NCBI GenBank assembly: GCA_963771175.1
Contig: CAVYSY010000030.1
Coordinates: forward strand, 32,001-96,000
From: an uncultured delta proteobacterium
GTDB lineage: Bacteria; Myxococcota; Myxococcia; Myxococcales; Myxococcaceae
Direction: 5' to 3'
DNA length: 64,000 bases
Position numbers and translations under genes: made by a program. Below, piece after piece: positions 1 to 22,397 of the stretch (positions within the stretch are counted from its first letter, which is position 1; every line of letters begins with the position of its first letter). The notes beneath the pieces are model-generated. The model saw nothing but the letters and a program-made list of their open reading frames with translations. It did no database searches and was not told the origin of the DNA.

Positions 1-480
1 GTCCACCTCAACGTGGACCTCGCGCGCTCCAACGTGCAGCGCACGGCCGCGTGGCCGGTGCTGCTGGGCAACCTGCTGCGCGAGGCTCGGCGCGCCCAGG
101 AGGGCTTCCCCCGGCGGCAGCTCTCCCTCGGCGAGCCCCTGTCGTTGGTGACGGTGGCGGGCGCTCGCTACACGCTGGCGGGACCCGAGGGGAACCGCCC
201 CCTCTTCGGCGCGGGCGCCTTGAGCCTGCCCCCGCCCGCGGTGCCCGGCCGCTACGTGCTGGAGCGGGACGGCGAGCCGGTGGATGCGGTGGAGGTGCTC
301 GCGCTGGATGCCCGCGAGTCGGACCTGCGCGGGCGTGGCGAGGGCGACAGGCCCGCTGAAGCCGAGGGCGATGACGACGGGGGCGAGTCCTCTTCAGGCC
401 GGGCGCGCTGGCCCCTGCTGGTGCTGCTGGCGGCGCTGCTCGCGGACTTCTCCCTCACCCGGCGCGCGGAAGCGAAGTGA
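1..480 (+). CDS. 3' end of a probable BatA/VWA-type membrane protein (partial, runs off the window start)
   Basis: Open frame from base 1; 'SNVQRTAAWPVLLGNLL', 'PGRYVLE', 'ESDLR' and a C-terminal TM segment (WPLLVLLAALLADF) resemble BatA/VWA protein C-termini. Confidence 0.6.
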   Translation, partial: VHLNVDLARSNVQRTAAWPVLLGNLLREARRAQEGFPRRQLSLGEPLSLVTVAGARYTLAGPEGNRPLFGAGALSLPPPAVPGRYVLERDGEPVDAVEVLALDARESDLRGRGEGDRPAEAEGDDDGGESSSGRARWPLLVLLAALLADFSLTRRAEAK

Positions 481-1501
481 GCAACTCTCCGCCTTCGGGC
501 ACGAGGAGCGACTCCACCGCCGCTCGCGCCTTCTTGAAGCGCTCGTCCCACGAGCCGCTCAGCTTCACGTAGCGTCGGCCCCGCGAGCGCAGGGCGTTCT
601 CGCAGCTCTCGAGGAACGAGGTGCGTTCGTCCGGCAGGTAGCGCACCGGGTCCGCCACCCACGGCACATCCACGTCCGTCAGCAGGTAGAGGTCGTAGTC
701 ACGGCGCTCCGCCTCCTGGAGGATGGGCGCCGGGCACTCGCCGAAGAGCACCTCGCTCCAGATGCTCGTCTCCAGCACGTCGGTGTCGCAGATGAGGACC
801 CGGTTCGCGCTCCGCGCCAGCGCGTCCTCCGCCGCCGCCTGCCCCCGTGCGATGCGCGGCATGTCCGCCAGCTCCACCTTGCCTCCCCGCGGCTCCAGCA
901 GCAGTCGGGCGTACTCCGGCACCATCACCGTCTTGAAGTGCTCCGCCAGTTGCTTCGACAGCGTCGTCTTCCCCGTCGACTCCGGGCCGAAGACGCACAC
1001 TCGCCGAGCGAAGTAGGGCCGCACGCACCTCGGCAGGTAGTCCCAGTGTTTCCACGGGTCATTCCGGATTGCCGTGCCACTCACCGGCACCGCCCCCCGC
1101 GCGATGTCCACCGGGATGAACTCGGCCCCCAACACCTCGGCCAGCTTCGCGCCGTACTCCTCGGAGGCGAACACGTAGTCCGGCCGGCCCGGCAGCACCC
1201 GCCGCAGGCTGTCTCGCCAGATGTCCCAGAACTGGGGGTGCTCGTGGGGGTACTGCGGGTTCTCGTCCGTCAGGTGCACCACCCGCGTGTCCGGGAAGAG
1301 CTCGCGCATCCACCCGTGGCGCAGCTCCCCGGGAATGGGCTCGGCCTTCAGCGTGCCCACCACCACCGTGAGGTCCGCCACGTACTCGCGCGCGAACTCC
1401 ACCAGGAAGACGTGCCCGAGATGCGGCGGCATGAACTTCCCGAGCACCATGCCCGTCCCCTGGCGCACGCTGCTCGCCCCTCGAATGCTCCTCGTGCTCA
1501 T
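455..1501 (-). CDS. nadR: NadR-like bifunctional NMN adenylyltransferase / ribosylnicotinamide kinase without the HTH domain
   Basis: GKFMPPHLGH (HxGH nucleotidyltransferase), SGTAIR, Walker A GPESTGKTT, PEYAR, ICDTD, DVPWVADPVR; ATG at 1501 overlaps the upstream stop (ATGA). Confidence 0.88.
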   Translation of the reverse strand: MSTRSIRGASSVRQGTGMVLGKFMPPHLGHVFLVEFAREYVADLTVVVGTLKAEPIPGELRHGWMRELFPDTRVVHLTDENPQYPHEHPQFWDIWRDSLRRVLPGRPDYVFASEEYGAKLAEVLGAEFIPVDIARGAVPVSGTAIRNDPWKHWDYLPRCVRPYFARRVCVFGPESTGKTTLSKQLAEHFKTVMVPEYARLLLEPRGGKVELADMPRIARGQAAAEDALARSANRVLICDTDVLETSIWSEVLFGECPAPILQEAERRDYDLYLLTDVDVPWVADPVRYLPDERTSFLESCENALRSRGRRYVKLSGSWDERFKKARAAVESLLVPEGGELLTSLPRAG

Positions 1502-4500
1502 GCTGTGCCCTCTGCTTCCCGCGCGAACGTATACCCAAGATAGGTGTGCAGCAGCGCCTCGGTGACCGGTGGGCACGAGAGCCCCGAGCCCTCCAGCCCC
1601 GCGCGCGCGTGCTCCATGCCGAATTCCGCCCCCGTCGCCTGGAAGAGATCCATCGTCCGGTGTCGCTCGAAGGCGCCCCCGGACAGGCCCCGGCAGAGCG
1701 CCAGGTACGCGGCGGCCTCGGATGAGCCCACCTCCTCCCGTGCGAGCGCGGCGAGCCGGGCCCGCCACTCCTCCTCGGAGACGGTGGCGAGGGGGATTCC
1801 AAAGGAGCGCAGGGCGTCCACCAGCACGGGCAGCGACAATGGCCGGGGATTGGCGAGGTGGAAGGTGGACGAGCCCTCCGCCGGGGCCGCGTGCAGGGAC
1901 AGGTGGGCCACCGCCGCGGCGGCGTAGTCCACGGGGGTGATGTCGACCGCGAGCCCCTCGCCCGCACCGCGCGGGATGCAGCCGAGCGAGGCCACCCCTC
2001 GGAAGAACAGGGACAGGAAGTCGCTCGCGGAGGCGCGCCCCGTGCGCGTGTCGCCCGTGATGAGGCCCAGCCGGTAGTACGTGATGGGCCCGGCCTCGCC
2101 CCGAGCGGAGCGCAGGAGCGCCTCGGCCGCCCACTTGCTCTGCGCATACCCGCCGAAGATGCGCTGGGGGCCCTCCAGTGCGTCCGTCTCCTCCAGGCGC
2201 CCGGTATTCCTGTCCGTCGACACGAACACCGACAGGGTGGAGATGTGGTGCAGCGACTTGCGTGCCCCTTCCGCCTGCAGGCGCAGCACCTGCTCGGTGC
2301 CTCCGACGTTCGCCTCGCGCAGCGCGCGGTACGGGAGCACCATGTTGACGTGGGCCGCGCAGTGGTAGATGTGGCCGACCTCGCGAGTGAGCCGCTCCCA
2401 CTCGAGCTCGTCGAGCCCCCAGCGCGGGCGTGCCAGGTCTCCCCGGAGCGCTACCAGACGCGCGGCCTCCTCCCGCGAGGGCGGCGTGCCTTGTGCCTCG
2501 AGTGCGCCCAGCAGGCGCTCCCGGGCTTCCTGGTCATCCCGGGCCCGCACGAGGCAGAGCACCCGGGCCTTGGTGCGCCGGAGCAGCTCGTGCAGCAGCC
2601 GCGAGCCGAAGAACCCCGTGGCTCCCGTGAGCAGCAGGTCTCCACCAGGAGATGCCGCTGGCCGCTCGCGGGCGGTGTGCAGGAGGGCCTCCCAACCGGG
2701 CCCCAGTGCGACGTCCGCGCGCAGTTCGTCCGCGCTCATGCCTCCATCCGTGGACGGCTGCTCCGGTCCTCCGGCTCCCATGTGGGCCAGCAGCTCGGAG
2801 ATGGTCGGGTGCGCGAGCATCGCGGCTGGACGGAGGGGGAGCCCGAGCGCCTCGGCCGCCGCGACGACCTGAAGCACCCCGAGCGAGTCCCCGCCGAGCG
2901 CGAAGAAGTCGTCCGTCACGCCCACGGGCGCCACGCCCAGCACATCCTCCCAGAGCTCACACAGCAGCCGCTCCGGCCCGGTGGCGGGAGGGACCACTCC
3001 GTCCGCCTCCCGCCGGGCCGAGAGTGGCAGGCGCGAGAGCACCTCGAAGTCCACCTTCCCCGTCACGGTGCGGGGCAGGCGCTCCAGCGGCTCGAAGCGC
3101 TGCGGTAGCATCCACCGGGGCAGCACGCCCGACAGGTGCGCGCGCAGCGCGTCCGGCGCGGGAGTCTCCCCGGGGAGGCGGGGCACGACGAACGCCACCA
3201 GCACGGCGCGCGCCTTCTCCCCGTCCGGGACGAGCGGGCGCTTGAGGACCGCCACGTCTTGGATACCTGGATGGCGCAGCAGGTGCGCCTCCACCTCCTC
3301 CGGCTCGATGAGCAGGCCCCGGAGCTTGAGCTGGCGATCCACGCGGCCGAGGAATTCCAGCTCCCCGTTCGGGTGCTCCACCACACGGTCGCTCGTGCGG
3401 TAGAGGCGCTCGCCGCCCCGCTCGACGAAGCGGGCCGCGGTGAGCTCGGGGCGGTTCACGTACCCGCGCGCCAGCCCCACGCCTCCGAGGTACAGCTCCC
3501 CGGGAGTGCCCGGTGGCACGGGCTCGCCTCGCGCATCGAGCACATGCCAGGACATGTTGGGAATGGGCTGACCGAGCAGCGGGCGCGTCCACGTCTCCGG
3601 ATCGCACGCGCAGAGGCTGGTGCAGATGGTGGCCTCGGTGGGGCCGTAGACGTTCACCACGCGCAGGTGACGTGCCCAGCGTCGGACCACCTCGGGAGGA
3701 CAGGGCTCTCCGCCGATGACGAGGACCCGCAGGGTGGCGGCCAGGGCCTCCGGCTCGAACATCCGCAGGAGCGAGGGGGGCAGGTCCGCGTGCGTGATGC
3801 GCCACCCGTTGAGCAGCGCCACGAGTCCCGGCCCGGGCTGGAGCGCGTGCGCGGGTGGCAGGCAGAGCGTCGCGCCGGACAAGAGCGCCGTGCCGATGTC
3901 GGACAGCGACGCGTCGAAGCTCGTCGACAGGTAGAGGATGGCGCGGCTCGTCTCGTCGAGCGCGAAGGCTTCGATCTGCGCGAGCAGCAGGTTGACGAGC
4001 CCCCGGTGCGGTACGAGCACGCCCTTGGGTGTACCCGTGGTGCCGGAGGTGTAGATGACGTAGGCGAGGTCCTCGGGGTGCGAGGACCCGCTCGGAGTCT
4101 CGCCGGTCGGAGCGCTCTCCGGCACGTCCTCGAGCCGCACGACGCGGGCCTCCACTCCTTCCAGCCGGGGCTCCGCACCCCGCCGCGCCACCACCAGCCC
4201 GAGCCCGCAGTCGCGCGCCATGAAGTCAATCCGCGCGGGGGGCAGCGTGGGCTCCAACGGCACGAACGCCGCTCCCGCGGCCCACACACCCAGCAGGGCG
4301 ATGACGTACTCGGGGGACTTCTCGAGGAACAACCCGACGATGCACTCGGGTCCCGCCCCGAGCCGCCGCAGGTGCGCCCCGAGCGCGGTGGCACGCTGGA
4401 GCAGCTCCGCGTAGGTGAGGCGGTTGCCCTCCGACTCCAGCGCCACCCGGTGGGGATGCGCGGCGGCGACGGCTCGGAAGTGCTCCCAGAAGGTGCCGGT

Positions 4501-4512
4501 GGGCGGGCTCAG
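1498..4512 (-). CDS. Stand-alone NRPS-like enzyme: adenylation, PCP and thioester reductase domains (A-T-R), about 1004 aa
   Basis: A motifs LTYAEL, YVIYTSGTTGTPKG, FDAS, NVYGPTE, GELYLGG, LYRTSD, GKVD; PCP FFALGGDSL; R domain LLTGATGFFG and GYAQSKW. Start placed at the CTG overlapping the upstream TGA, 6 nt after GGAGG; start codon uncertain. Confidence 0.92.
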   Translation of the reverse strand: MSPPTGTFWEHFRAVAAAHPHRVALESEGNRLTYAELLQRATALGAHLRRLGAGPECIVGLFLEKSPEYVIALLGVWAAGAAFVPLEPTLPPARIDFMARDCGLGLVVARRGAEPRLEGVEARVVRLEDVPESAPTGETPSGSSHPEDLAYVIYTSGTTGTPKGVLVPHRGLVNLLLAQIEAFALDETSRAILYLSTSFDASLSDIGTALLSGATLCLPPAHALQPGPGLVALLNGWRITHADLPPSLLRMFEPEALAATLRVLVIGGEPCPPEVVRRWARHLRVVNVYGPTEATICTSLCACDPETWTRPLLGQPIPNMSWHVLDARGEPVPPGTPGELYLGGVGLARGYVNRPELTAARFVERGGERLYRTSDRVVEHPNGELEFLGRVDRQLKLRGLLIEPEEVEAHLLRHPGIQDVAVLKRPLVPDGEKARAVLVAFVVPRLPGETPAPDALRAHLSGVLPRWMLPQRFEPLERLPRTVTGKVDFEVLSRLPLSARREADGVVPPATGPERLLCELWEDVLGVAPVGVTDDFFALGGDSLGVLQVVAAAEALGLPLRPAAMLAHPTISELLAHMGAGGPEQPSTDGGMSADELRADVALGPGWEALLHTARERPAASPGGDLLLTGATGFFGSRLLHELLRRTKARVLCLVRARDDQEARERLLGALEAQGTPPSREEAARLVALRGDLARPRWGLDELEWERLTREVGHIYHCAAHVNMVLPYRALREANVGGTEQVLRLQAEGARKSLHHISTLSVFVSTDRNTGRLEETDALEGPQRIFGGYAQSKWAAEALLRSARGEAGPITYYRLGLITGDTRTGRASASDFLSLFFRGVASLGCIPRGAGEGLAVDITPVDYAAAAVAHLSLHAAPAEGSSTFHLANPRPLSLPVLVDALRSFGIPLATVSEEEWRARLAALAREEVGSSEAAAYLALCRGLSGGAFERHRTMDLFQATGAEFGMEHARAGLEGSGLSCPPVTEALLHTYLGYTFAREAEGTA

Positions 4513-5363
4513 GATGCGCCTCCGGCGGGAGCCGCCGCGGGGTGGACGTACTCCTCGAGCGTCGAGCCGGTCGAGCGGTTGTCCACGTCGGGAGCACCGA
4601 GACCCTGGCGGTGATCCTCGAGGTGGACGGAGCGGAAGTCGACGCTGAAGCGTGTGCGCCCCGAGGCGTGTGGTCGCGTGCGGTGCAGGTGCGCCGCGGA
4701 GAAGACGAGCACCTCGCCCGTCCGGCACGCGAAACCCCGCTCCTGGAGCCCGTCGAGTGGGACGAGGGACGTGGGGTACGCGGCGCTCGCCGCTCGCTTC
4801 GGGTTCTGCCACCCCGCCTGGGTGCGCCACGTCTGGTAGTCGAAGGTGGAGGAGGAGTTGGGCACCGGCTGGTCGAAGGCCTCGGGGAAGAAGGTGAACG
4901 TCTCCTCCTCGGTGCCGTCGTGGAGCGCGAGCCACCAGTTGAGCTGTGCCCGAGGATTGGCGTACCAGGTGTCGCGGTGGGCGAAGTAGACGGGCGCGGC
5001 CGCTTCAATCTCATGCCCCCGGTGCAGGACGCCGCGGAGCCGCGGCTTGTCGAGGGCGTACTCGTCCGGCGCCTGTCCCGCCGCCGCCAGCACCGCGCGA
5101 GCGCCCGCGAGGAAGCGCGCCTCCCCGGTCAGCACCTGGCGCACGCGCCCCAGGCGCTCGAGGTGCTCCGCCGCCGGTAGCCGGAACTGCGCCTCGCGCG
5201 GGTCTCCCACGTCCTGGAAGGTCTCCGCGAGCAGCTCGAAGACCTCGCGCGCCAGCCGCATCGATGCCTCGCTCGGGGCCAGCTTGAAGAGGGCCCCGGC
5301 GTAGAGCGCTTGCCGGAACTCCGTGGGGCGGGAGGGCGGTGGGGCGAAGGGGAGGGGGCTCAT
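4509..5363 (-). CDS. Fe(II)/2-oxoglutarate-dependent oxygenase-like protein (PhyH/StrG-like fold)
   Basis: HxD (HRDTWY), NWW, distal His in AHLHRT, then RFSVDFR typical of DSBH oxygenases. Confidence 0.7.
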   Translation of the reverse strand: MSPLPFAPPPSRPTEFRQALYAGALFKLAPSEASMRLAREVFELLAETFQDVGDPREAQFRLPAAEHLERLGRVRQVLTGEARFLAGARAVLAAAGQAPDEYALDKPRLRGVLHRGHEIEAAAPVYFAHRDTWYANPRAQLNWWLALHDGTEEETFTFFPEAFDQPVPNSSSTFDYQTWRTQAGWQNPKRAASAAYPTSLVPLDGLQERGFACRTGEVLVFSAAHLHRTRPHASGRTRFSVDFRSVHLEDHRQGLGAPDVDNRSTGSTLEEYVHPAAAPAGGAS

Positions 5364-5492
5364 GGACGCTCCGCCGAGGAAAGCACAAGGGAGGTGCTCC
5401 GATGAAGACGGGCCCCGGGGTCACCCCCCTTGGACGGCCAGACCCTGGTAGCATGGTGTACCTGTCTCCCCGGGAGCCCGGTTCCTCCACGC

Positions 5493-8242
5493 ATGAGCTT
5501 CTCCCTGCCCCAGGCGCTGGTGCTACTCGTGCCGCTGGGCCTCTTCCTGTGGAAGCGGGGCCGGCGCCCTGGCCCTCCCATGGCCCTGCGCTGGGCGCTG
5601 CTGCTGCTCACGGTGGGCGCGCTCGCCGGTCCCGAGCTGGTGCTCAGCCACGCGGGCAGTGACGTGGTGATGGTGGTGGACCGCTCGCGCTCCATGCCAG
5701 CGGACGCGGGACGGGTGGCCTCGGAGCTGGTGGGCCTGCTGGAGTCGCAGCGGCGGCCCGGGGACCGGGTGGGCGTCATCTCCTTCGGGCGCGAGGCTCG
5801 GGTGGAGCAGCCGCTGTCGCGAGGCGGGGCGCTTCGGCGGCTTCACCCGACCAGTGGACGCGGAGGCGTCGGACCTGTCGGCGGCGCTGGACTGCGGCGG
5901 GAGGCCTCATTCCTCCAGGCCGCACGGGCCGGGTGCTGGTGGTGTCCGACGGTCGGGCCACGGGCGCGGATGCTCGCGGCGCGGCCCGGCGACTGGCGGC
6001 CCGGGGCATCGCCGTGGACTTCCGCCACGTGGCCCGCGAGGACTCGCCGCTGGACCTGGCCGTCCTCTCGCTGGACGTGCCGGCCTCGGTGACGGCGCGC
6101 GAGCCCTTCCAGATGACCGGGGTGGTGCAGGCCTCGGCGCCCATCACCGGCACGGTGCGCCTGGAGCGCAATGGCCACGTATTGGTGAAGGGGCCCTTCG
6201 AGTTCCACACCGGGCCCAACCTGCTGCCCTTCCGCGACCTGGTGGACGAGCCGGGGCTGGTGGCCTACCGGCTGACGGTGGAGGCGCCGGGCGACGGAGT
6301 GGTGGAGAACGACGTCGGGCAGGCGGTGCTGCGCGTGGAGGGCCCGCCTCGGGTGATGCTGCTCACGGACCAGCCCGAGGGCACGCTCGCCAAGGCGCTG
6401 CGCTCGGCGGGGCTGCTGCTGGAGGTGCGCGCGCCCTTCCCCGTGACGATGGACGCGCTGGATGGCGTGGGCGCGGTGGTGCTGGAGAACGTGGACGCGA
6501 ACCGGCTGGGCGAGCCGGGGTTGAACGTGCTCGCCACCTACGTGGAGCAGGCCGGCGGCGGGCTGGTGATGACGGGCGGCCGGGCCAGCTTCGGCGAGGG
6601 CGGTTACCGCCGCTCTCCGGTGGAGCCGCTGCTGCCGGTGTCCCTGGAGATGCGCGAGGAGCAGCGCCGCACCGCGCTGGCCATGAGCGTGCTGATGGAC
6701 TGCAGCTGCTCCATGGGCATGCAGGTGCCGGACGGGCGCACGAAGATGGAGCTGGCCGCCGAGGGCGTGGTGGGGGCGCTCACGCTGCTCAACGAGAAGG
6801 ACGAGGCGTCCGTCCACATGGTGGACACCGAGGCGCACGAAATCTTTCCGCTGAGCCCGGTGGAGAACGGCCTGCCGCTGGACGAGGTGTCGCGGGGCTT
6901 CAGCGGCGGAGGCGGCATCTACGTGGGCGAGGCCCTGCGCGTGGGCCGGAAGGAAATCCTCCAGAGCGACAAGGTCACCCGGCACGTGCTGCTCTTCTCG
7001 GACGCGGCGGACTCGGAGGAGCCGGACGACTACCTGAAGACGCTGCGGGAGCTGCAGGGCGAGAAGGTGACGGTGTCCGTCATCGGCCTGGGGACGGAGA
7101 AGGACCCGGACGCGGAGCTGCTGAAGGAGGTCGCCGCGAGGGGTGGAGGCCGCATCTACTTCGCGGAGGACGCGACGAGCCTCCCGCGCATCTTCAGCCA
7201 GGAGACCATCGCCGTGGCGCGGGCCACCTTCGTGGACGAGCCCGCGTCGCTGGAGGCGGCGCCGGACCTGCCGCTGCTCGGGAGGCTGCCGGCGGTGGGG
7301 CTGCCCCAGGTGGGCGGCTACAACCTCACGTACCTGCGGCCGCGCGCGAGCGTGGCCCTGCGGACACTCGACGACAACGCGGCGCCGGTGCTGGCGCTGT
7401 GGCCGCGCGGGGCGGGGCGGGTGGCGGCCCTCATGGCGGAGGTGGACGGGGAGTTCACCGGCGAGCTGCGCTCCTGGAGCGGCCTGCGCGCGGCGCTGGA
7501 GGGCATGGTGCGCTGGACGATGGAAGGGGCGGGCGAGGCGGGCGAGGCGGTGGCGCGCTCGGAGCGGCGGGGCAACCTGCTGCGGGTGACACTGGACTTC
7601 GCGCCGGGAGAGGCCCTGCCGGGTGCGCTGCCCTCGCTGGTGCTGCTGCCTGGGGACGGGCGGGGCACGCCGGTGGAGGTGCCCATGCGCTGGGAGGACG
7701 AGGACCGGGTGGCGGCCGAGTACACCCTGCCGGGCAGCGGCACGTGGCACCCGGTGGTGAAGCTGGGGACGCGGGTGCTGCGGGCCCCTCCCGTGGCGCT
7801 GCCCTACGCGCCCGAGTTCGAGCCCGGCAACGCCCAGGAGGGACTGGAGGTGCTGCGCGCTGTCGCGGGCGTGGGCGGTGGCATGGAGCGGCTGTCCATG
7901 GCCGGCCTCTTCGCGGAGGCGCCGGAGTCGGAGGGGCGCGTGGTGCTGGCGCCGTGGCTGGTGGGGCTGGCGGTGGCGGTGCTGCTGTCGGAGGTGGCGG
8001 TGCGCCGCTTCCTCTCCGGTCCGAGGCCGAGGCGCGCGGTGGCTCCCTCGGCGGAGGCCGTGGTGGTGCCGGGCCTGTCGGCTTCGGCCGCCGTGCGCCC
8101 ACCCCCAAGGGAGAGTGGGAAGGGCACCGCGCCGGAGGCCCCAGCCGCCGCTTCGGGCGAGGCGACGCGCGAGACGGAAGGCGGCGTGGACTCGGCGCTG
8201 GAAGCCGCGCGGGAGCGGGCCCGGCGCCGCCTGAAGCGCTGA
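5493..8242 (+). CDS. Double-VWA domain membrane protein (two +1 frameshifts near 5820 and 5893, probably errors)
   Basis: N-terminal TMs; MIDAS DRSRS and DCSCS; GGGLVMTGG..SFG.GGY..SPVE.LLPV; HVLLFSD; C-terminal TM. Frames 5430..6092, 5854.. and 5933..8242 join. Confidence 0.85.
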
Positions 8243-8329
8243 GTGTGTTTCGCTCGATGATGGCCCAGGCGTAGAGTCGTCCGCCACCTCGGACAGAGGC
8301 GCGGGCCCGAGGTCGACAGGGGAGGGTAC

Positions 8330-9229
8330 ATGAGTCCCAAGAAGGTGGCCTGGGCACCGGGTGCCGGGTTCGAGGAGCCCTTCTGGCACCTCGCCGCACT
8401 CCAGGTCTCCTCGTTGTGGGAGGAGACCCGCGGCGAGGGCGTGGTGATCGCCATCCTCGATGGTGGGGTGGATGACGTCGTCGGCCTTCGGGGAGAGCGC
8501 ATCCAACATGTCGATTACCAGGGCCGGGAGAGCTCTCCCTGGGATGACAGCAACGGCCACGGGACCGCGTGTGCCAGCCTCGCCGCATCCAGCCACAAGC
8601 ACGCACCGGGCGTGGCTCCCGGGGCGAGCCTCCTCAGCATCAACGTCGCCGGGGTGAACGGAGAGCCCCTCCTCTACAAGGTGGAGTCAGGGCTGCGGGT
8701 GGCCATCGAGTCCGCGGACATCATCTCGTGCAGCTTCGTCATGCCGGAGGTCTCGCAGGCCATCTGGGATGTCCTCCGGGAGGCGCAGGCCCTCGGGCGC
8801 GTGGTGGTGGGCGCCGCTGGCAATGACGAGACGCTGACCTCCGCGTTTCCCGAGAACGTGCCCGAGGTCATCTCCGTGGCCGCGCTCTCGCGCCAGCTGA
8901 CGCCCCTCTCCGGCGGACGCTTCGGCCCGTTCGTCGACCTCGCCGCACCGGGTCAGGACCTCCGGGTGAGCACCTCCCTCGGCATCAAGAACTGGCGGGG
9001 CGCCACCTCCGGCGCGACCGCCCTCGTGTCCGGTGTCTGCGCGCTCGTGCTCTCCGCGGCGAAGAAGCACGGATTGAATGTCACCGAAGTCGGGCGCTCG
9101 CTCCCGGAGCTCCTCCTGTCCACCGCCACCGACCTGGGCGAGGTGGGGCCGGACGTCACGACTGGCGCCGGAATGATCAACCCCCCGAAGTTGCTGGAGG
9201 CGGTCCTCTCCCAACTTGGAGTCTCTTGA
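8330..9229 (+). CDS. Subtilisin-like S8 serine peptidase
   Basis: IAILDGGVD (Asp), NGHGTACA (His), AAGN, DLAAPG, GATSGATALVSG (Ser); no evident signal peptide. Confidence 0.85.
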   Translation: MSPKKVAWAPGAGFEEPFWHLAALQVSSLWEETRGEGVVIAILDGGVDDVVGLRGERIQHVDYQGRESSPWDDSNGHGTACASLAASSHKHAPGVAPGASLLSINVAGVNGEPLLYKVESGLRVAIESADIISCSFVMPEVSQAIWDVLREAQALGRVVVGAAGNDETLTSAFPENVPEVISVAALSRQLTPLSGGRFGPFVDLAAPGQDLRVSTSLGIKNWRGATSGATALVSGVCALVLSAAKKHGLNVTEVGRSLPELLLSTATDLGEVGPDVTTGAGMINPPKLLEAVLSQLGVS

Positions 9230-12562: not shown

Positions 12563-12587
12563 GCCCGGGGCCCCGAGGGCTCCGGGC
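12563..12587. terminator. GC-rich hairpin between convergent genes
   Basis: GCCCGGGGCCC-CGA-GGGCTCCGGGC, 11-bp stem with one G-T pair. Confidence 0.45.
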
Positions 12588-13798
12588 TAGAAGGCCACGG
12601 GCAGGCGCTGCAGGCCATTCACGAGGATGCCGTCGCGCCAGCGCAGCTCGGCCGGGTCCACGGCGAAGCGCAGGCGCGGCAGGCGCTCCAGCATCAGATT
12701 GATGGCGATGGTGGCCTCGAGCCGGGCCAGCGGCGCGCCCAGGCAGAAGTGGATGCCGAAGCCGAAGGCGATGTGCCGGTTGGGCTCGCGGGTGATGTCG
12801 AACCGCTCCGGCTCGGAGAACTGCTCGGGGTCGTGGTCGGCCGCCATCAGCGAGGCCACCACGCCCTCTCCCTCGGGAATCACCTGGCCGCGGAACTCGA
12901 TGTCCTTCGGAGCGAAGCGGAAGGTGGAGGTCTCCACCGGGCCCCGGTAGCGCAGCATCTCCTCCACCGCCGAGTCGATGAGGGCCGGGTTGGCGCGCAG
13001 CCGCTCCAGTTGCTCCGGGTGCGTGAGCAGCGCCCAGGTGCCGTTGCCAATGAGGTTCACCGTCGTCTCGTGGCCCGCCACCAGCAGCAGGAAGAGCATG
13101 CTCATCAGCTCCATCGGCGAGAGCCTGTCTCCCTGCTCCTCGGCGGCCATCATCGCGGTGAGCAGGTCGTCGCGCGGGTCGGCCCGGCGGCGCGCCAGGA
13201 GGCCCTGGAAGTACTGGACGAACTGCATGCCGGCCCGCTGGATGGGCTCGAAGTTCCCCCCGACGGGTGGGGTGAAGATGGTGGTCGTCCAATCGCGGAA
13301 CTGGTCCCGGTCCTCTACCGGCACCCCGAGCAGCTCGGCGATGACGGTGATGGGCAGGGGGAAGGCGAAGGCGTCCAGCAGGTCCATGGAGCCATTCGCC
13401 TGGACCGAGTCCAGGAGCTGGGTGGCGATGGCGGTGATGCGCGGGCGCAGGTCCTCCACGCGGCGCGGGTTGAAGGCCTTGGACACCAGCGTGCGCAGGC
13501 GCGTGTGGTCCGGCGGATCCGCCATGAGCATGTGCTGGTTGAGCGCCTGCATCGTGTCGGTCCGGATCTGCCGGGCGCGCGACGCCTCGGGGAGCTTGCG
13601 CATGTCCTTGGTGAAGCGCGGGTCTCTCAGCAGCTCCACCGCGTCCTTGTAGCGGGTCGCCACCCACACCGGCAGCTGCTGGTGGGGGTCGAACAGCCGC
13701 ACCAGGGGCGCCTCCTCCCGCATGCGCGCGTAGAGGGGCAGGGGATTGGCGCGCGTCTCCGGCGCCCACAGGTCGTAGCGATTGGGGTTCGTGCTCAA
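12587..13798 (-). CDS. Cytochrome P450 (CYP107-like)
   Basis: DPPDHTRLR, AGHETT, EEMLR, HIAFGFGIHFCLG heme motif; TTG start after GGAGG. Confidence 0.95.
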   Translation of the reverse strand: MSTNPNRYDLWAPETRANPLPLYARMREEAPLVRLFDPHQQLPVWVATRYKDAVELLRDPRFTKDMRKLPEASRARQIRTDTMQALNQHMLMADPPDHTRLRTLVSKAFNPRRVEDLRPRITAIATQLLDSVQANGSMDLLDAFAFPLPITVIAELLGVPVEDRDQFRDWTTTIFTPPVGGNFEPIQRAGMQFVQYFQGLLARRRADPRDDLLTAMMAAEEQGDRLSPMELMSMLFLLLVAGHETTVNLIGNGTWALLTHPEQLERLRANPALIDSAVEEMLRYRGPVETSTFRFAPKDIEFRGQVIPEGEGVVASLMAADHDPEQFSEPERFDITREPNRHIAFGFGIHFCLGAPLARLEATIAINLMLERLPRLRFAVDPAELRWRDGILVNGLQRLPVAF

Positions 13799-13860
13799 GG
13801 TGTGCCTCCAGGGGGTGAAGCGAGGGGCCCGGCCCGTCCTCGCGCGACTCCCTGGATAGC

Positions 13861-15183
13861 CTAGAGCAGCGTCCCGCGCAGGATGAGGCTGGCGACGGTG
13901 AAATAGATGACGAGACCGGATACATCCACCAGCGTGGCCACGAAGGGCGCGGAGGCGCTCGCGGGGTCGAAGCCCAGCCGGCGGAGCAGGAAGGGCAGCA
14001 TGGAGCCGGAGACGGTGCCCCACATCACCACGCCCACCAGGGACAGGCCCACCGTCAGCGCCACCAGCAGGGCGTGCTCGCCGTAGCTGTGGAAGAGGGA
14101 CTGCCAGAGGAGGATGCGCGCGATGCCCACCGAGCCCAGGACGGCGCCCAGGGCCAGCCCCGCGCCCACTTCGCGCCGCATCACGCGCCACCAGTCGCGC
14201 AACCGCACCTCGGAGAGCGCCAGCGAGCGGATGATGAGCGTGGTGGCCTGGCTGCCCGAGTTGCCCCCGGAGCTGATGATGAGCGGGATGAAGAGGCTGA
14301 GCACCACCGCCCGGGCAATCTCCTCCTCGAAGTGGCCCATGGCCGTGGCCGTGAGCATCTCGCCCAGGAAGAGCACGAGCAGCCAGCCCGCCCGCTTCTT
14401 CAACATGGCGAGGAAGCCCACCTCGAAGTAGGGCGCGTCGAGGGCCTCCATGCCGCCCACCTTCTGGATGTCCTCGGTGGCCTCCTCCTGCACCACCTGG
14501 ACGATGTCGTCCACGGTGACGATGCCCTTCATCCGCTGCTCGGCGTCCACCACCGGAATCGCCATCAGCCCGTGCTCGGCGAAGAGCCGGCTGACCGCCT
14601 CCTGGTCGGTGTCCTCGGAGACGGTGATGAGGTCGCGGCTCATCACGTCCACCACGCGCTTGTCCGGGGCCGCCTGGAAGAGCTGGCGCAGTGACACCAC
14701 GCCCCGCAGGTGCTGCTGCCCGTCCAGCACGTAGGCGTAGTAGACCGTCTCCACCTTCTCGCGTGTCTGCTTGCGCAGGTAGCTGATGGCCTCGTCGATG
14801 GTCATCTCCGGCCGCACGCGCGCGAAGCGGGGATTCATCAACCCACCCGCGTCGTCCTCGGCGTAGGCCAGCAGGGCGTGCACCTCGCGGCGGGTGGTCT
14901 CGTCCAGCTCCCTCAGCAGCGGCTCCCGCGCCTCCCCGGGGGCGGACTGGATGACGTCCACCGCGTCGTCCGGGGCGAGCAGCCGCAGCCACGTGCGCCG
15001 CTCGCCCGGGGCCATGGCGAGGATGAGCTCCGCCTGCTCCTGCGAGGACAGCGAGAGGAAGAAGTCGTCCGCCGTGCCGTGCGGCACCAGCTTGAAGCTC
15101 TCCACGCGCTCTTCGCGCGAGAGCGCGGGCCAGGCATCACGCAATTCGTGCGGGAAGATGGGCTCGGGGTCCAGCGTCGCCAT
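13861..15183 (-). CDS. mgtE: Magnesium transporter MgtE
   Basis: AGGLM, CBS pair, EEATEDI, GGNSGSQA, DPASASAPFVATLVD. Confidence 0.95.
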   Translation of the reverse strand: MATLDPEPIFPHELRDAWPALSREERVESFKLVPHGTADDFFLSLSSQEQAELILAMAPGERRTWLRLLAPDDAVDVIQSAPGEAREPLLRELDETTRREVHALLAYAEDDAGGLMNPRFARVRPEMTIDEAISYLRKQTREKVETVYYAYVLDGQQHLRGVVSLRQLFQAAPDKRVVDVMSRDLITVSEDTDQEAVSRLFAEHGLMAIPVVDAEQRMKGIVTVDDIVQVVQEEATEDIQKVGGMEALDAPYFEVGFLAMLKKRAGWLLVLFLGEMLTATAMGHFEEEIARAVVLSLFIPLIISSGGNSGSQATTLIIRSLALSEVRLRDWWRVMRREVGAGLALGAVLGSVGIARILLWQSLFHSYGEHALLVALTVGLSLVGVVMWGTVSGSMLPFLLRRLGFDPASASAPFVATLVDVSGLVIYFTVASLILRGTLL

Positions 15184-15246
15184 GGCGGCTGCTCCTCTGC
15201 GCGGCGGGGCACCCTTCATCCAACTCCCGAGGATTGTCCAGCCCGT

Positions 15247-16643
<1,397 letters not shown>

Positions 16644-16647
<4 letters not shown>

Positions 16648-18107
16648 GCCTCAGCCCCCTGTGACTCCTGGGTCTCCTTTGGAAGGAAGATGGAGAAGCA
16701 ACTGCCCCGCCCGTGCTCACTGCTCACGGAGATCCACCCCCCGTGGTCCCGGATGAGCCCATAGGAGACGGACAGGCCCAGTCCCGTGCCCTCTCCCACG
16801 TCCTTGGTGGTGAAGAAGGGCTCGAAGATGTGGGGGAGCGTCTCCGGGGGGATGCCCTCGCCCTCATCCATCACGTCCAGCCGCACCCAATCGGCCTCCG
16901 GGCCACCCGGGTCCGATGGCGGCAGGGCACGCGCGGAGCCCAGGCTCACCCGCAGCGTGCCCGGGCGCTTCATCGCCTGGAGGCCGTTGACCACCAGGTT
17001 GGTGAGCGCCTGTTGAATCTGCCCGGCATCCACGTGCAGGTTCACCGGGCCCGAGGCCTCGAAGGCGAGGATGATGTTGCGTCGCGCGGCCAGGGGCCGC
17101 AGCAGCTTCAAGCTCCGTTCCACCAGCTCGGCCAGGTCCTCCGGGCTCCGCTGGGGCGTCCGCCGCCGGGCGAAGTCCAGGAGCTGGCGGATGATGCCCG
17201 ACATGTGCTGCACCTGCTGGGAGATGATGCGGGCGCACTCCTGTATCTCGTCTCCCGCGGCGTCTCCGGAGGCAATCATCTTCGCCCGGCCGAGCACCAC
17301 GTTGAGCGGGGTGCCCAGCTCGTGGGCCATGCCGGAGGCGAGCTTGCCCACCGTGCCCAGCCGATCCGCGTGCCGCAGGTGCTCGAGCGTGGCCAGGCGC
17401 GCCGCTGTCTCCGCCGCCACCTGCGCGCGCGCGGTCGCCAGCCCCGCCGCCATCTGGTTCATCGCGTCGGCCAGGGTGGCCAGCTCGTCCTTCTGCTTCA
17501 GGTTCACCCGCGCCTCCAGGTCTCCCTGGCCAATGCGGTGTGCCAGCCCCACGAGTTGCTCCACCGGGCGGCCCACCAGCCGGCGGCCCATGGCCATGGC
17601 CACCAGCAGGAAGGCCAGGGTGATGGCGCAAGTGGCCAGTGCCGTGCCCACCACTGTCTGGCGCACGTGCAGTCGCTGCTCCGTGAGGGGCTCGATGATC
17701 TCAATGGCGCCTCTCCTCGGACCGATGACCACCGGGGTGTAGGAGCGCAACAGGCCCGGTCCGATGTCGTCGTCCACCAGGGAGGTGTCCCGACCGGCGA
17801 GCAGCTCCTCCTGCTGGGCTCGCGGCAGCTCCCTCGCCTCCGGCGAGTCCAACCACAGCCAGCTCAGTTGCACCTGCTCCTGGAAGCGGTTGGCCTCCGC
17901 CAGCAGCGTGAGGGCCTGCTCCTCGCCCTCCGTCTCCCAGGCTCGGACGAAGGAGCCGCCCAGCGAGTGGCCGAGCAGGCGATGATCATGCTGCATGTCC
18001 AGCGCCGAGCGGGCCAGCTCTCGTTGGACCTCGACGGTCTCGAGCCCCGCGATGACGGCGAAGGCGAGCAGCACGAGGGCGAGGGTAATCTTCCGAGCGA
18101 GATTCAT
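16644..18107 (-). CDS. Membrane sensor histidine kinase with a HAMP domain
   Basis: Two TMs, HAMP, AHELGTPL H-box, DEGEGI, FFTTK, GTGLGL; overlaps the regulator gene by 4 nt. Confidence 0.95.
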
Positions 18108-18257
18108 TCGGCCTGGGTATCCGGGAGCGACCGTGGGCCCCAGAACAGCTCCTGCTCCACCAACAACTCGCACACCTGCCCTGGTCCACGGTCAGTGGGG
18201 GAGGGAAGAGGGCATGGGCCAGGATGGGGGTGCAAGCAGGAAAGGGGTCGCCTCCTG

Positions 18258-18273
18258 AGCATGGCCCGTGCCA
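18258..18273 (-). promoter_or_regulatory. Sigma-54 (-24/-12) promoter for the kinase/regulator operon
   Basis: Minus strand reads TGGCACGGGCCATGCT (GG-N10-GC). Confidence 0.7.
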
Positions 18274-18328
18274 CCAGGGCTTCTCCTCGGGCCCCCGGGA
18301 GGTGGTGGGGAAAACGGGCTCCGAGGCC

Positions 18329-18362
18329 TGGGGCACAATGCCCCGTGGGGCAGGATGCCCCG
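18329..18362. promoter_or_regulatory. Tandem 17-bp palindromic repeats, putative enhancer-binding-protein site
   Basis: TGGGGCAcaaTGCCCCG followed directly by TGGGGCAggaTGCCCCG. Confidence 0.65.
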
Positions 18363-18405
18363 TGCGTCCCACGGGGTGAGCCCCTCCGGGTCGGGTTGTT
18401 CACAC

Positions 18406-18421
18406 TGGCATGCGCCATGCT
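18406..18421 (+). promoter_or_regulatory. Sigma-54 (-24/-12) promoter for the single-domain response regulator
   Basis: TGGCATGCGCCATGCT (GG-N10-GC), 38 nt before the ATG. Confidence 0.65.
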
Positions 18422-18458
18422 GTGCAGGGGCTGACCCCTCCCGCTCTGGTCGTGCGCC

Positions 18459-18887
18459 ATGATGCCACCCCTGCCGTCCGAACCCCGCCCCCTGCGCATC
18501 CTCCTGGCAGAGGATGATGACGAGATGCGCGCGCTCCTCACGCTGGCGCTGGCGCGGGCGGGCTACGCGGTGGTGGCGCTGGAGGACGGCTTCGAGCTGG
18601 CCGACTACGTGGCGCTGACGCAGGTGTGTGGCGGTCCGTTGCTGCCGCCGGACGTCATCCTCTCGGATGTGCGGATGCCGGGGCGCACCGGGCTGGAGGT
18701 GCTCGCCCAGGCTCATGCGGCCGGGCTCTCCTGCCCGGTGATCATCCTCTCGGCCTTCGCGGACGACGAGACGCGGACGGAGGCGCGGCGACTCGGTGTG
18801 TGCGCCGTGCTGGACAAGCCGGTGGACCTGGAGGTGCTGAGGGATACCGTGGTAGAGGTGGCCCGCTCCGGGAGCAGGCCCCGCTGA
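18459..18887 (+). CDS. Single-domain response regulator
   Basis: ILLAEDD, SDVRMPG, LSAF, KP receiver motifs. Confidence 0.9.
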   Translation: MMPPLPSEPRPLRILLAEDDDEMRALLTLALARAGYAVVALEDGFELADYVALTQVCGGPLLPPDVILSDVRMPGRTGLEVLAQAHAAGLSCPVIILSAFADDETRTEARRLGVCAVLDKPVDLEVLRDTVVEVARSGSRPR

Positions 18888-18964
18888 TCCTCCGCTGGCC
18901 CACCGTGTGCAGTGGGTGGCTGATCCCACGAGGACCTTCCCGCTCCACCTCGCGCGCCCCCCGC

Positions 18965-21013
18965 ATGCCTCGCTCCCGTACGCTCGTCCTCGCGATCTCC
19001 GTTCTCCTCCTCCTGGCCGCCGGGGCCGCGGTCTGGCGTCCCGCCGCGGCCAAGACTCCGCCCGTCGCGCCCCCCCAGGCGCCAGTGGCCCAGGCGCCAG
19101 TGGCCTCGTCGCCCGCGCCAAAGGAGGAGCTCCTCTCTTCCGCCGCTGGCTACGTGGGCTCGGAGAAGTGCTCCGAGTGCCATGACGAGGAGCACGCCGC
19201 GTGGAGCAAGGACTGGCATGCCCGCGCGCTCTCGCCGGCCACTCCGCGCTTCGTGGTGGGCGACTTCGCCAACGCCCATTACAAGGGCGACTCCAGCGAG
19301 GCGTGGATGACCCGGCGGGACGAGCGCTCCTTCATGCGCACCCAGGGGCCCACCGGCGCCGTCTCCGAGTACCCGGTGGACTGGGTGGTGGGCGGCAAGC
19401 GGATGCAGGACCCCATCACCCGGATGCCGGACGGCCGCTGGCAGGTGCTGCCCATCTACTTCCACGTCACCGGCAAGGGCGAGTGGGTGGACTACTCCGA
19501 GTCCAAGCAGGGCGCGCTGTCGACGGACCACCCCTTCTTCTGGTCCAACTGGCAGCGCAACTCCCAGCACTCGTGCCTGGACTGCCACGTCACCGGCCTC
19601 AACACGCGCTACGACCGGCGGAGCCACCGCTGGAGCACCGGCTTCGCGGACGCGGGCGTGGCCTGCGAGAGCTGCCATGGCCCCGGCGCGCGCCATGTGG
19701 AGACGCAGCTCGAGAAGGACATCGTCCAGCCCTCGAAGCTCCCGCCGCAGAAGGGGATGGCCGTGTGCGCGCAGTGCCACGGGCCGCACCGCACGCTCTT
19801 CCCCCTGCTGGACGCGCAGCACCACTTCCAGCCCGGGGAGCGCTACGAGGACCACTACCAGCCCATGGTGGTGCTGATCAGCGGCAGCGATCGCTCCGGG
19901 GACTTCTTCGAGGACGGGCGCCCTAAAACCTCCAGCTTCGAGTACCAGGCCCTCTCCCAGTCGCGCTGCGCCATGCAGGGCGGCGCCACCTGCCTCACCT
20001 GCCACACCGCGCCCCACGTCCCGCACGCGGCCAATGAGGTGAAGCAGCCGAAGCACCCCACGCCGGGGGTGACGGTGGGCTCGGCGAGCTGCCAGGGGTG
20101 CCACGCGAAGGTGTTCGCCGAGGGGCAGAAGCACACGCACCATGCCTCGGCCGAGGCGCAGGACTGCGTGGCCTGCCACATGCCGCCGACCGTCTCGGGC
20201 GTGCTGGACCACCTGGCGGACCACGCCATCGACGTGCCGGTGCCGCGCAACACGGTGAAGCACGGCATCCCCAACGCGTGCAACGCGTGCCACACGCACG
20301 AGAAGGCCACGCCCGAGTCGATGGTGGAGGCCCTGGAGAAGTGGTGGCCCAAGGCGGGGCAGCGGCAGGCGCGGCGGCTGCGGCTGGCGGACGCCATCGA
20401 CGTGAAGACCGCGGAGGACAGCCGTCAGCCCCTGGAGCAGGTGCTGGCGGACAAGAAGGAGGCGCCGACCCTGCGTGGCGTGGCGGCCCGGTTGCTGGCC
20501 CAGCGCTTCCGCAAGGACGCCGTGCCCGCGCTCAAGGCGGCCCTGCCCACGGCCACGGACCCGGTGCTGCGCTCCGATCTCGTCGAGGCGCTGGCCGCGA
20601 CGGGCACGCGCGAAGTGGCGGACGTGCTCGCCCCGTTGCTGCAGGACAAGTCGCTCTGGGTCCGCCAGGCCGCGACCCTCCCGCTCGCCAGCGTGGGGGA
20701 CCCGCGCGGGCTCGCCGCCCTGGAGGCGCTGGCGCGCCAGCCGGAGTCGGAGGGGCTGCCGATGCCGCACGTGGTGCTCGGGCAGTTGGCCTTCCGACGG
20801 GGCGACCTGGCCACGGGGACCCGGGAGCTGGAGCGGTCCCTGGAACTGCAGCCGTACAATGTCGAGGTGCTGGTGCTGCTGGCGGACGCCTATGCCCGCC
20901 AGGGCGACATGCCGCGGGCGAAGGACCGGCTGGAGGAGGCGCTGCGATTCGACCCGCGGCACCGCGGCGCGAAGCAGCGGATGGGCCTCATGCAGCGCGG
21001 CCCGGGGCGCTGA
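18965..21013 (+). CDS. Periplasmic multiheme cytochrome c (8 CxxCH) with HEAT-like and TPR repeats
   Basis: Signal/TM segment; CSECH, CLDCH, CESCH, CAQCH, CLTCH, CQGCH, CVACH, CNACH; C-terminal helical repeats. Confidence 0.88.
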   Translation: MPRSRTLVLAISVLLLLAAGAAVWRPAAAKTPPVAPPQAPVAQAPVASSPAPKEELLSSAAGYVGSEKCSECHDEEHAAWSKDWHARALSPATPRFVVGDFANAHYKGDSSEAWMTRRDERSFMRTQGPTGAVSEYPVDWVVGGKRMQDPITRMPDGRWQVLPIYFHVTGKGEWVDYSESKQGALSTDHPFFWSNWQRNSQHSCLDCHVTGLNTRYDRRSHRWSTGFADAGVACESCHGPGARHVETQLEKDIVQPSKLPPQKGMAVCAQCHGPHRTLFPLLDAQHHFQPGERYEDHYQPMVVLISGSDRSGDFFEDGRPKTSSFEYQALSQSRCAMQGGATCLTCHTAPHVPHAANEVKQPKHPTPGVTVGSASCQGCHAKVFAEGQKHTHHASAEAQDCVACHMPPTVSGVLDHLADHAIDVPVPRNTVKHGIPNACNACHTHEKATPESMVEALEKWWPKAGQRQARRLRLADAIDVKTAEDSRQPLEQVLADKKEAPTLRGVAARLLAQRFRKDAVPALKAALPTATDPVLRSDLVEALAATGTREVADVLAPLLQDKSLWVRQAATLPLASVGDPRGLAALEALARQPESEGLPMPHVVLGQLAFRRGDLATGTRELERSLELQPYNVEVLVLLADAYARQGDMPRAKDRLEEALRFDPRHRGAKQRMGLMQRGPGR

Positions 21014-21116
21014 GCGGCCCAGCCTGGGGCCTCCATTTCAAGCAGGCAGCCGGGCGGGAGCTGGCGCGAGCGCATTGCGCATTCCGGGGAGATGGCGGAA
21101 GGATGCGGCCACTTCT

Positions 21117-22393: not shown

Positions 22394-22397
22394 GGCG

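Follow-up and report, generated by a model that had tools for sequence, protein, structure and literature searches.

The window analysed here, a 64,000-nt stretch of an uncultured myxobacterial genome (G000:C30:32001-96000), carries at positions 455-5363 of its minus strand three genes that encode a PhyH-type Fe(II)/2-oxoglutarate (2OG) dioxygenase, an enzyme related to non-ribosomal peptide synthetases (NRPS) with adenylation, carrier and thioester reductase domains (A-T-R), and a protein resembling NadR, an enzyme of nicotinamide adenine dinucleotide (NAD) salvage. This trio is one operon and forms the conserved core of a six-gene cluster that is spread across phyla, and its A-T-R and NadR-like components are coupled tightly enough to exist as single fused proteins. 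The enzyme families involved are all known; their combination, its breadth and the fusions appear to be undescribed. The assembly comprises 9.8 Mb in 58 contigs with 72% G+C (completeness 81.7%, contamination 4.5%), and the closest relatives of its proteins belong to named Archangium. The three open reading frames (ORFs) are intact and tightly packed, with a G+C content at third codon positions of 0.90-0.93 in their frames. A first-pass annotation of the sequence had already recognised three intact minus-strand genes here and had named their products as a 2OG oxygenase, an A-T-R NRPS and a NadR-like kinase/adenylyltransferase; ORFs, domains and motifs uphold both statements.

Relatives of the trio were sought by scanning one genome per species with an alignment of the oxygenase, and the best 80 of 187 relatives were retained as loci; most of these come from metagenome-assembled genomes (MAGs), and related loci, such as the five with NAMPT genes described below, are not independent of one another. 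The oxygenase, the A and R domains and both halves of the NadR-like protein were all found within 8 kb in 61 of the 80 loci (tblastn, E≤1e-5), and 39 of these 61 complete loci keep the gene order of the window. A stricter count, requiring at least 60 bits, finds the trio in 59 of 80 loci and all six genes in 40. Many of the 19 incomplete loci end at contig edges; one part is truly absent despite sufficient room in L007, L080, L042, L068 and several Obscuribacterales loci. The three genes, which the first-pass annotation had treated as a coupled cassette, do recur together in other genomes (59-61 of 80 loci), and the loci span 11 named phyla: Myxococcota, Planctomycetota, Pseudomonadota, Melainabacteria, Verrucomicrobiota, Acidobacteriota, Actinomycetota, Bacillota, Cyanobacteriota, Armatimonadota and Vulcanimicrobiota.

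Clustering of all other ORFs from the 80 loci revealed three further conserved genes, encoding a class I methyltransferase (72/80 loci), an AsnB-type glutamine amidotransferase (55/80; 427-436 bits to TIGR01536, cut-off 267) and a Zn-dependent alcohol dehydrogenase (ADH) of the medium-chain dehydrogenase/reductase type (48/80). The usual order is ADH-AsnB-methyltransferase-oxygenase-ATR-NadR. The common form of the system is a six-gene operon, so that the earlier description of the trio as a 'minimal' pathway does not stand. The same clustering yielded no conserved transporter, exporter or condensation domain, and ORFs inserted at single loci mostly had no Pfam match, the exceptions being NADAR, a cation-efflux protein and an aspartyl protease.

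The NadR-like gene directly follows the R domain in nearly all loci, and this adjacency extends to physical fusion. In proteins P0124-P0130 (1183-1362 aa), AMP-binding and NAD_binding_4 domains stand in one chain with 93-95% of the NadR-like protein (a precomputed PP-binding match is listed for P0128-P0130), and in P0131-P0134 the A-T-R enzyme is fused to the kinase half alone. At L038 and L039 a single frame runs without a stop from the R domain into the kinase, with the nicotinamide mononucleotide (NMN) adenylyltransferase (NMNAT) as the next gene, and at L050 the R domain reads through into the NMNAT domain without a stop. The functional tie between NRPS and NadR that the first-pass annotation had proposed is supported by these fusion proteins, as well as by the recruitment of NAD genes in several lineages. 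Elsewhere in the cluster, the methyltransferase and oxygenase share one stop-free frame in L013, L025 and L027 (~7176-8816) and probably in L022 (2078-3681); these read-throughs, which come from Obscuribacterales and one Kofleriaceae MAG, are probably fusion proteins. No longer protein containing the oxygenase domain was scored, which is weak evidence.

The genomic surroundings of NadR homologues fall into two settings, beside the nicotinamide riboside (NR) importer PnuC or beside an A-T-R enzyme. PnuC adjoins nine NadRs outside the cluster, four by annotation (Miltoncostaea, Leptospira, Caulobacter phage CcrSC and Aeromonas phage ST4) and the rest by tblastn (Tritonibacter and four others). 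It was detected by tblastn in none of the 80 cluster loci. Within the present genome (81.7% complete) neither PF04973 nor tblastn with four PnuC proteins found a copy, and the remark of the first-pass annotation that no PnuC lies nearby extends from the window to the genome; one of five other cluster-bearing genomes has PnuC, on a separate contig. Since PnuC stands next to the non-cluster NadRs and is absent from the cluster loci, the A-T-R enzyme occupies the place of the substrate-supplying partner. One could imagine instead that the NadR-like gene is an ordinary NAD salvage gene co-regulated with an NADPH-hungry reductase, raising the NAD(P) supply with no chemical link to the product. The canonical NadR motifs are indeed retained, and the R domain and the ADH require nicotinamide cofactors; however, mere co-regulation accords poorly with adjacency in 59-61 of 80 loci across 11 phyla, with the fusion proteins and with the absence of PnuC, the usual source of substrate, and NAD would be needed in catalytic amounts only. 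We consider this explanation improbable.

The NadR-like protein itself (positions 455..1501, minus strand, 348 aa) begins at an ATG overlapping the NRPS stop codon and matches AAA_28 (E 2e-38) and TIGR01526 (E 5.5e-90). Alignments with solved NadRs extend over both domains, with E values of 5.5e-40 for 8x7f (E. coli-type) and 7e-31 for H. influenzae 1lw7. The scores stay below the curated NadR cut-offs (301.9 versus 341.15 bits for TIGR01526, 143 versus 201 for NF005988). The match begins at position 63 of the 411 of the NF005988 profile, and the protein starts 15 residues before the NMNAT motif; from the start of this match we conclude that the helix-turn-helix (HTH) domain is lacking, as had been claimed from the sequence at the outset. 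The NMN-adenylyltransferase-type domain (1007..1456, minus strand), which aligns with 8x7f and 1lw7, contains GKFMPPHLGH and SGTAIR, in agreement with the NMNAT motifs GxFxPxHxGH and SxTxxR, together with an aromatic NMN loop; G21, F23, P25, H30 and R146 are common to five of five canonical NadRs. The ribosylnicotinamide-kinase-type P-loop domain (539..1003, minus strand; AAA_28 at residues 167-321) has the Walker A and B motifs GPESTGKTT and DTD, with G172, S175, G177, T180 and D239 shared. A comparison of 67 cluster-linked NadR-like sequences with five canonical or PnuC-linked NadRs gave 20 conserved columns in common; these cover all catalytic motifs and include the two NMNAT motifs, Walker A, the R..W motif, E196, D239 and R287. 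Judged by these residues, the protein still looks like an NR/NMN enzyme and not like a re-tooled one.

Cluster-linked NadR-like proteins form a tight group; most have 50-75% identity to the window's protein, which itself shares 29% identity with E. coli NadR. Its nearest relative outside the cluster is the PnuC-linked NadR of Caulobacter phage CcrSC (46%, range 46-49%); in this jumbo phage (L111, 224-226 kb) PnuC, an HTH-less NadR and a nucleoside 2-deoxyribosyltransferase stand in a row. In our phylogenies, all of which are quick trees, 14 non-cluster NadRs at first fell on one side of a branch (SH-aLRT 88), and the clean split between cluster and non-cluster sequences was lost once two phage NadRs were added. 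Whether this NadR nests among ordinary salvage NadRs, a point on which the first-pass annotation had let its proposal hang, receives a divided answer: the cluster-linked proteins keep closely together, yet the relatives nearest to them outside the group are genuine salvage enzymes. Among 151 genomes of the class Gammaproteobacteria, TIGR01526 gave just four matches, none above the cut-off, which served only as extra sequences. As a separate observation, in proteins P0135-P0242 of Flavobacteriia (~700 aa), some of them listed elsewhere under the name nicotinamide riboside kinase, a NadR-type riboside-kinase domain (AAA_28) is joined to DUF4301 (PF14134), another unexplained partner of this kinase domain.

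Turning to the presumed supplier, the A-T-R enzyme (1498..~4512/4515, minus strand, ~1005 aa) is well delimited by Pfam and NCBIfam matches: AMP-binding at E 1e-86, PP-binding at 4e-14 and NAD_binding_4 at 1e-59. Its adenylation domain (3055..4479, minus strand; AMP-binding at residues 13-352, AMP-binding_C at 407-487) scores 395 bits to TIGR01733, against a cut-off of 317, and possesses D235 and K517. The carrier domain (2782..2967, minus strand; residues 517-578) is identified by its PP-binding match together with the phosphopantetheine site LGGDSL in the translation. The thioester reductase domain (1528..2634, minus strand; TIGR01746 at residues 628-996, 316 bits, cut-off 213) carries TGATGFFG and YAQSK, and in an alignment of 33 sequences G31, G34, G37, Y190 and K194, belonging to the Rossmann motif and YxxxK, are invariant.

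The specificity code of the A domain, read at motif anchors following the Stachelhaus scheme, is DASDVGVICK. The pattern DASD[VI]G.[VI]CK is almost invariant across the cluster: positions 1-6 read DASD[VIL]G in 70 of 71 rows, and most rows have DASD[VI]GV[VI]CK. From this near-invariance, one and the same amino acid is predicted to be loaded by the A domain at all loci. The top NCBIfam match over the A-T-R enzyme is MxcG, the lysine-loading C-A-T-R NRPS of myxochelin biosynthesis (NF038078; 608 bits against a cut-off of 2300, 37% identity). This match covers only profile positions 459-1434, leaving the present enzyme without the condensation domain of MxcG. True MxcG proteins of the same genus (2718-2770 bits) provided a lysine reference; their code, DAEDIGTVVK, and that of the A-T-R enzyme have five of ten positions identical and two similar. 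Because the acidic E239 of MxcG is replaced by Ser, lysine is not assured as the substrate, and glutamine codes (DAQDLGVVDK) are similarly near. The amino acid loaded is probably a long one, polar or cationic. Another NRPS, encoded on contig C38 and with the code DAWCVAAVCK, had been considered as the lysine reference and was rejected as not being MxcG.

The oxygenase, the first gene of the operon (4509..5363, minus strand, 284 aa), is a more distant family member. It has no Pfam match of its own at E≤0.01 and none to PF05721 (PhyH) at E≤0.1, hence below the gathering threshold, and NCBIfam holds no model for it. Homologues scoring E≤0.001 number 158, and weak PhyH matches (E≤0.1; best E 7.5e-7) do appear in 20 of 24 that were aligned. 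The putative iron triad, H129-x-D131 and H227, and the 2OG-binding R238 are invariant among 24 sequences. An AlphaFold (AF2) model of high confidence (pLDDT 93, pTM 0.90) is predicted to adopt a double-stranded β-helix like that of solved PhyH members: Foldseek aligned it with proline hydroxylase H11, EvdO2, PtlH, SyrB2 and EctD at E 3e-7 to 1e-5, and with these five and PHYHD1 at a probability of 1.00 and TM scores of 0.36-0.54. Assignment to the 2OG oxygenases, as a distant member, is sound.

The reading we prefer, to which we would give slightly less than an even chance, is that the NadR-like enzyme phosphorylates and adenylylates a substrate produced within the cell by the reductase/oxygenase module, in whichever of two chemical forms. 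The A domain would activate a long polar or cationic amino acid; the PhyH-type dioxygenase would hydroxylate it, probably while bound to the carrier or else in free form, and the R domain would free the product as an aldehyde or alcohol, to be tailored by the ADH, AsnB and methyltransferase where these are present. Such an internally made compound would stand in for the imported nicotinamide riboside of PnuC-NadR salvage. The kinase domain would phosphorylate it and the adenylyltransferase domain would join it to adenosine monophosphate (AMP), and the outcome would be either an NAD-like dinucleotide or an ADP-activated 2-amino-1,3-diol. For the former, one may speculate that a β-hydroxy-glutamine aldehyde closes on its amide nitrogen and, minus two waters, becomes 5-amino-2-pyridone, a nicotinamide-like base; this route would explain why NAMPT, NadM and NadD have been recruited in some lineages.

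Several observations weigh against this proposal. On the side of the NadR-like enzyme, only one column, A198 versus G, is consistently switched relative to canonical NadRs, giving no sign of an altered pocket. An aromatic loop holds NMN in NadR, according to the NARP3 paper (PMC13464706). This loop is conserved in the NadR-like protein: its aromatics match those of E. coli NadR, and the loop is near-identical to that of the PnuC-linked NadR of the Caulobacter phage. Moreover, the PnuC-linked NadRs of CcrSC and Tritonibacter fall inside a 45-row clade together with all cluster-linked sequences (SH-aLRT 96), and because of this nesting a genuine NR/NMN activity of the NadR-like enzyme is quite possible. 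On the biosynthetic side, the pyridone-base form needs a ribosylating enzyme, and no ribosyl- or phosphoribosyltransferase is conserved in the cluster, NAMPT being confined to 5 of 80 loci; nor does the cluster conserve a transferase that would use an ADP-activated product. The ADH and AsnB genes (48 and 55 of 80 loci) are not universal. Finally, neither the substrate nor a two- versus four-electron outcome of the R domain can be read from sequence.

Genes of NAD metabolism have joined the cluster repeatedly. NAMPT and NadM-Nudix genes lie directly upstream of the A-T-R gene, in the same operon, at five related loci; a tandem NadD-NadD fusion adjoins the NadR-like gene at nine Melainabacteria loci; NrtR-type regulators stand as the first gene or divergently at six loci; and two MAGs that are not related to each other have NADAR genes (PF08719, E 3e-50) within the cluster or at its head (L048:12900-13487 and L077:3153-3704). 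These associations speak for a pathway that consumes NAD, in which NAD+ would serve one step as donor of ADP-ribosyl, AMP or NMN groups and not as a redox cofactor, while the NadR-like protein and the recruited genes rebuild NAD and clear ADP-ribose: recycling of nicotinamide, NMN and ADP-ribose is exactly what the recruited genes do, NrtR-family regulators sit beside six loci, and the NadR-like protein keeps canonical NR/NMN motifs. Yet none of the six conserved proteins is from a family known to cleave NAD+, the fusion of a recycling enzyme to A-T-R is hard to explain, and the kinase half is kept everywhere although recycling of nicotinamide or NMN has no need of it. We regard NAD consumption as unlikely, while less so than the remaining alternatives.

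The recruited families also have the (nicotinic acid) mononucleotide adenylyltransferase step in common, and the housekeeping pathway is present as well, as might be expected if the product inhibited pyridine-mononucleotide adenylyltransferase (the NadD step) and the cluster carried extra or insensitive adenylyltransferases (NadR-like, NadM, NadD-NadD) for self-resistance or bypass. We give this possibility only a slim chance, given that no exporter is conserved, that the same compact operon and A-domain code persist over 11 phyla, unlike typical antibiotic clusters, and that resistance genes are rarely fused to a biosynthetic enzyme.

An AsnB-type amidotransferase that could make a carboxamide, with NAD genes nearby, might even suggest an alternative de novo route to nicotinamide or NAD in place of the quinolinate pathway. 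NadA is encoded in this genome and in five of five other cluster-bearing genomes, NadC and NadE in five of five genomes searched, this one included, and NadD-like genes in all. Because these genes are present, the standard pathway is not replaced by the cluster; we rejected the idea of a replacement, and an alternative de novo route is very improbable indeed.

We return to a substrate made in the cell by the oxygenase and reductase and handed to the NadR-like enzyme. Its furthest-reaching form would be a pathway, hitherto undescribed and present in at least 11 phyla, that converts one amino acid into a nicotinamide-riboside-like compound and then, via a dedicated and sometimes fused NadR-type enzyme, into a new NAD-like dinucleotide. 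This version is tentative, and the chances are clearly against it. If it is true, a new nucleotide cofactor, signal or antimetabolite would derive from an amino acid, with the A-T-R enzyme in the supplying role of PnuC.

The operon is arranged as follows. The NRPS stop and the NadR start form ATGA at 1498-1501. Upstream, the NRPS frame and the oxygenase gene, whose stop is TGA (4509-4511), share 4 nt, and the overlapping codon is CTG (CTGA) rather than ATG, GTG or TTG. The same junction reads GTGA in the Archangium relative L003 and CTGA both in L002 and in the second copy on contig C47 described below, and homology of A-T-R relatives extends to residue 2-9 of the CTG-start reading. Given CTGA here and GTGA at the equivalent position in L003, the NRPS-like protein likely starts at CTG (4512-4510), or translation is re-initiated. 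The first-pass annotation had joined the genes by 4-nt stop/start overlaps; both positions are right, and the second uses the non-canonical CTG in this genome. Genes encoding VWA/BatA proteins flank the trio, one convergent and one divergent. The former contributes its 3' end (1..480, plus strand), overlapping the NadR-like gene by 26 nt and lying outside the system, and the latter (5933-8242, plus strand) is separated from the operon by an intergenic stretch (5364..5932) that presumably holds the promoter region. Synteny with a genome of the same genus, G311, is limited to the NadR-side flank, which places the neighbouring P450, peptidase and other genes outside the system. Conservation with the trio is likewise lacking for the genes at 12587-23900, which encode a P450, MgtE, both partners of a sigma-54 two-component system, TauE/DUF1634, a TamB-like protein and a multihaem cytochrome that has HEAT/TPR repeats.

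The cluster appears in split form in this genome. Orthologues of the ADH and AsnB genes lie together on contig C33 (551080-554010), away from the contig of the trio, and their hidden Markov model (HMM) scores of 415 and 946 bits are within the range of true members; likewise, the two modules, trio and ADH-AsnB, are ~1 Mb apart in G311. A methyltransferase orthologue was not found with the queries used, either here (assembly 81.7% complete) or in four other Archangium genomes. The methyltransferase HMM did match the oxygenase ORF, a false match due to contamination of the HMM by methyltransferase-oxygenase fusions, and the best remaining match in this genome has 35 bits. A query with a single methyltransferase protein gave no match in five Archangium genomes. 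The oxygenase is present in 5 of 18 genomes of the genus; an unlinked AsnB orthologue of at least 95% identity accompanies it in four of these five and occurs in none of the 13 others, a co-occurrence that is suggestive only, the genomes being kin.

At a wider scale, within a sampling of the order, none of the 44 further genomes from this family had the NadR-like gene, and in quick trees the Archangium NadR-like proteins group with those of Armatimonadota, Actinomycetota and Planctomycetota, not with other Myxococcota. Together, these two results point to patchy inheritance or horizontal transfer of the cluster.

Further sequences related to the system were encountered elsewhere in the assembly. 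Contig C47 (4320-11002) carries a second copy of the trio with its BatA/VWA flank, 98.7% identical to window positions 5419..-1262; all three reading frames are broken by its 11 gap openings. The start of this contig is colinear with a contig of L002, another Archangium MAG (92% over 8.9 kb). Decay of a duplicate, the presence of a second strain in the bin or faulty assembly could each account for this copy. A match to the housekeeping NadD on contig C50 (20593-21121) is split over two overlapping frames, which suggests indel errors in the assembly, so that frameshifts elsewhere, such as those of the C47 copy, should be read with care. Contig C52 (113094-113780; L084:7091-7780) encodes an NrtR-type regulator (NUDIX and NrtR_WHD, E 1e-29) with 68% identity to the NrtR that is cluster-linked in L051; the C52 gene adjoins one for an AraC-type regulator and lies away from the trio. 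A crude count of simple 5+5 dyads, covering 11 upstream regions, gave none that Archangium has in common with the NrtR-linked loci.

NAD metabolism is regarded as well mapped, and the production of aldehydes and alcohols by A-T-R enzymes is familiar. Should the NadR-like enzyme act on the reductase product, a new amino-acid-derived nucleotide would follow, which might act as cofactor, signal, head-group donor or NAD antimetabolite; should the pathway consume NAD, it would reveal that NAD has a new role, other than redox, in the making of small molecules. In either case, the finding offers for study a sharply defined six-gene unit, found in the cultured Sulfidibacter corallicola and Acanthopleuribacter pedis, an almost invariant A-domain code and natural fusion proteins. 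The first-pass annotation had not recognised the combination as a described cluster, and in the full-text literature searched (subscription journals and MIBiG lying outside the search) we found no description of NadR, NMNAT or NAMPT with an NRPS-reductase cluster, the papers returned being the phage NARP3 study and general works on NadR.

Among known systems, several resemble parts of the cluster. NAD itself reportedly serves as a natural-product building block through SbzP in altemicidin biosynthesis, which likewise ties pyridine nucleotides to secondary metabolism; the conserved genes of the present cluster include no such pyridoxal phosphate enzyme. HldE, in the synthesis of ADP-heptose, and the choline/ethanolamine kinases and cytidylyltransferases of the Kennedy type activate alcohols. 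By analogy, their kinase step followed by nucleotidyl transfer on a PF01467-type fold, giving a nucleotide-activated alcohol, may parallel the chemistry proposed here, although no downstream transferase is conserved in our cluster; the homology considered here is that of the shared nucleotidyltransferase fold. Operons of NadV and NadM (NAMPT plus NMNAT-Nudix) under NrtR contain the same genes as those found in the operon at five loci, with NrtR at six others; here, however, they are accessory (5/80 and 6/80), and neither stands beside the trio of the window.

For the biosynthetic half, a close parallel is CmlP/CmlA of the chloramphenicol pathway, an A-T-R NRPS and a β-hydroxylase acting on a tethered amino acid to give a 2-amino-1,3-diol. 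In that system, a single amino acid is loaded, hydroxylated and released reductively, with no peptide bond formed. It differs in having a diiron hydroxylase, in contrast to the PhyH-type Fe/2OG enzyme, and the cluster described here has another code, a kinase/adenylyltransferase following the reductase and a distribution over many phyla. For the nucleotide half it is PnuC-NadR salvage, as known from E. coli and H. influenzae and, with an HTH-less phage NadR beside PnuC, as NARP3 (PMC13464706), that has the same two-domain enzyme, the same catalytic motifs and the same aromatic NMN loop; in our loci PnuC is missing, and the partner of the NadR-like protein is instead an A-T-R NRPS-like enzyme, sometimes fused to it.

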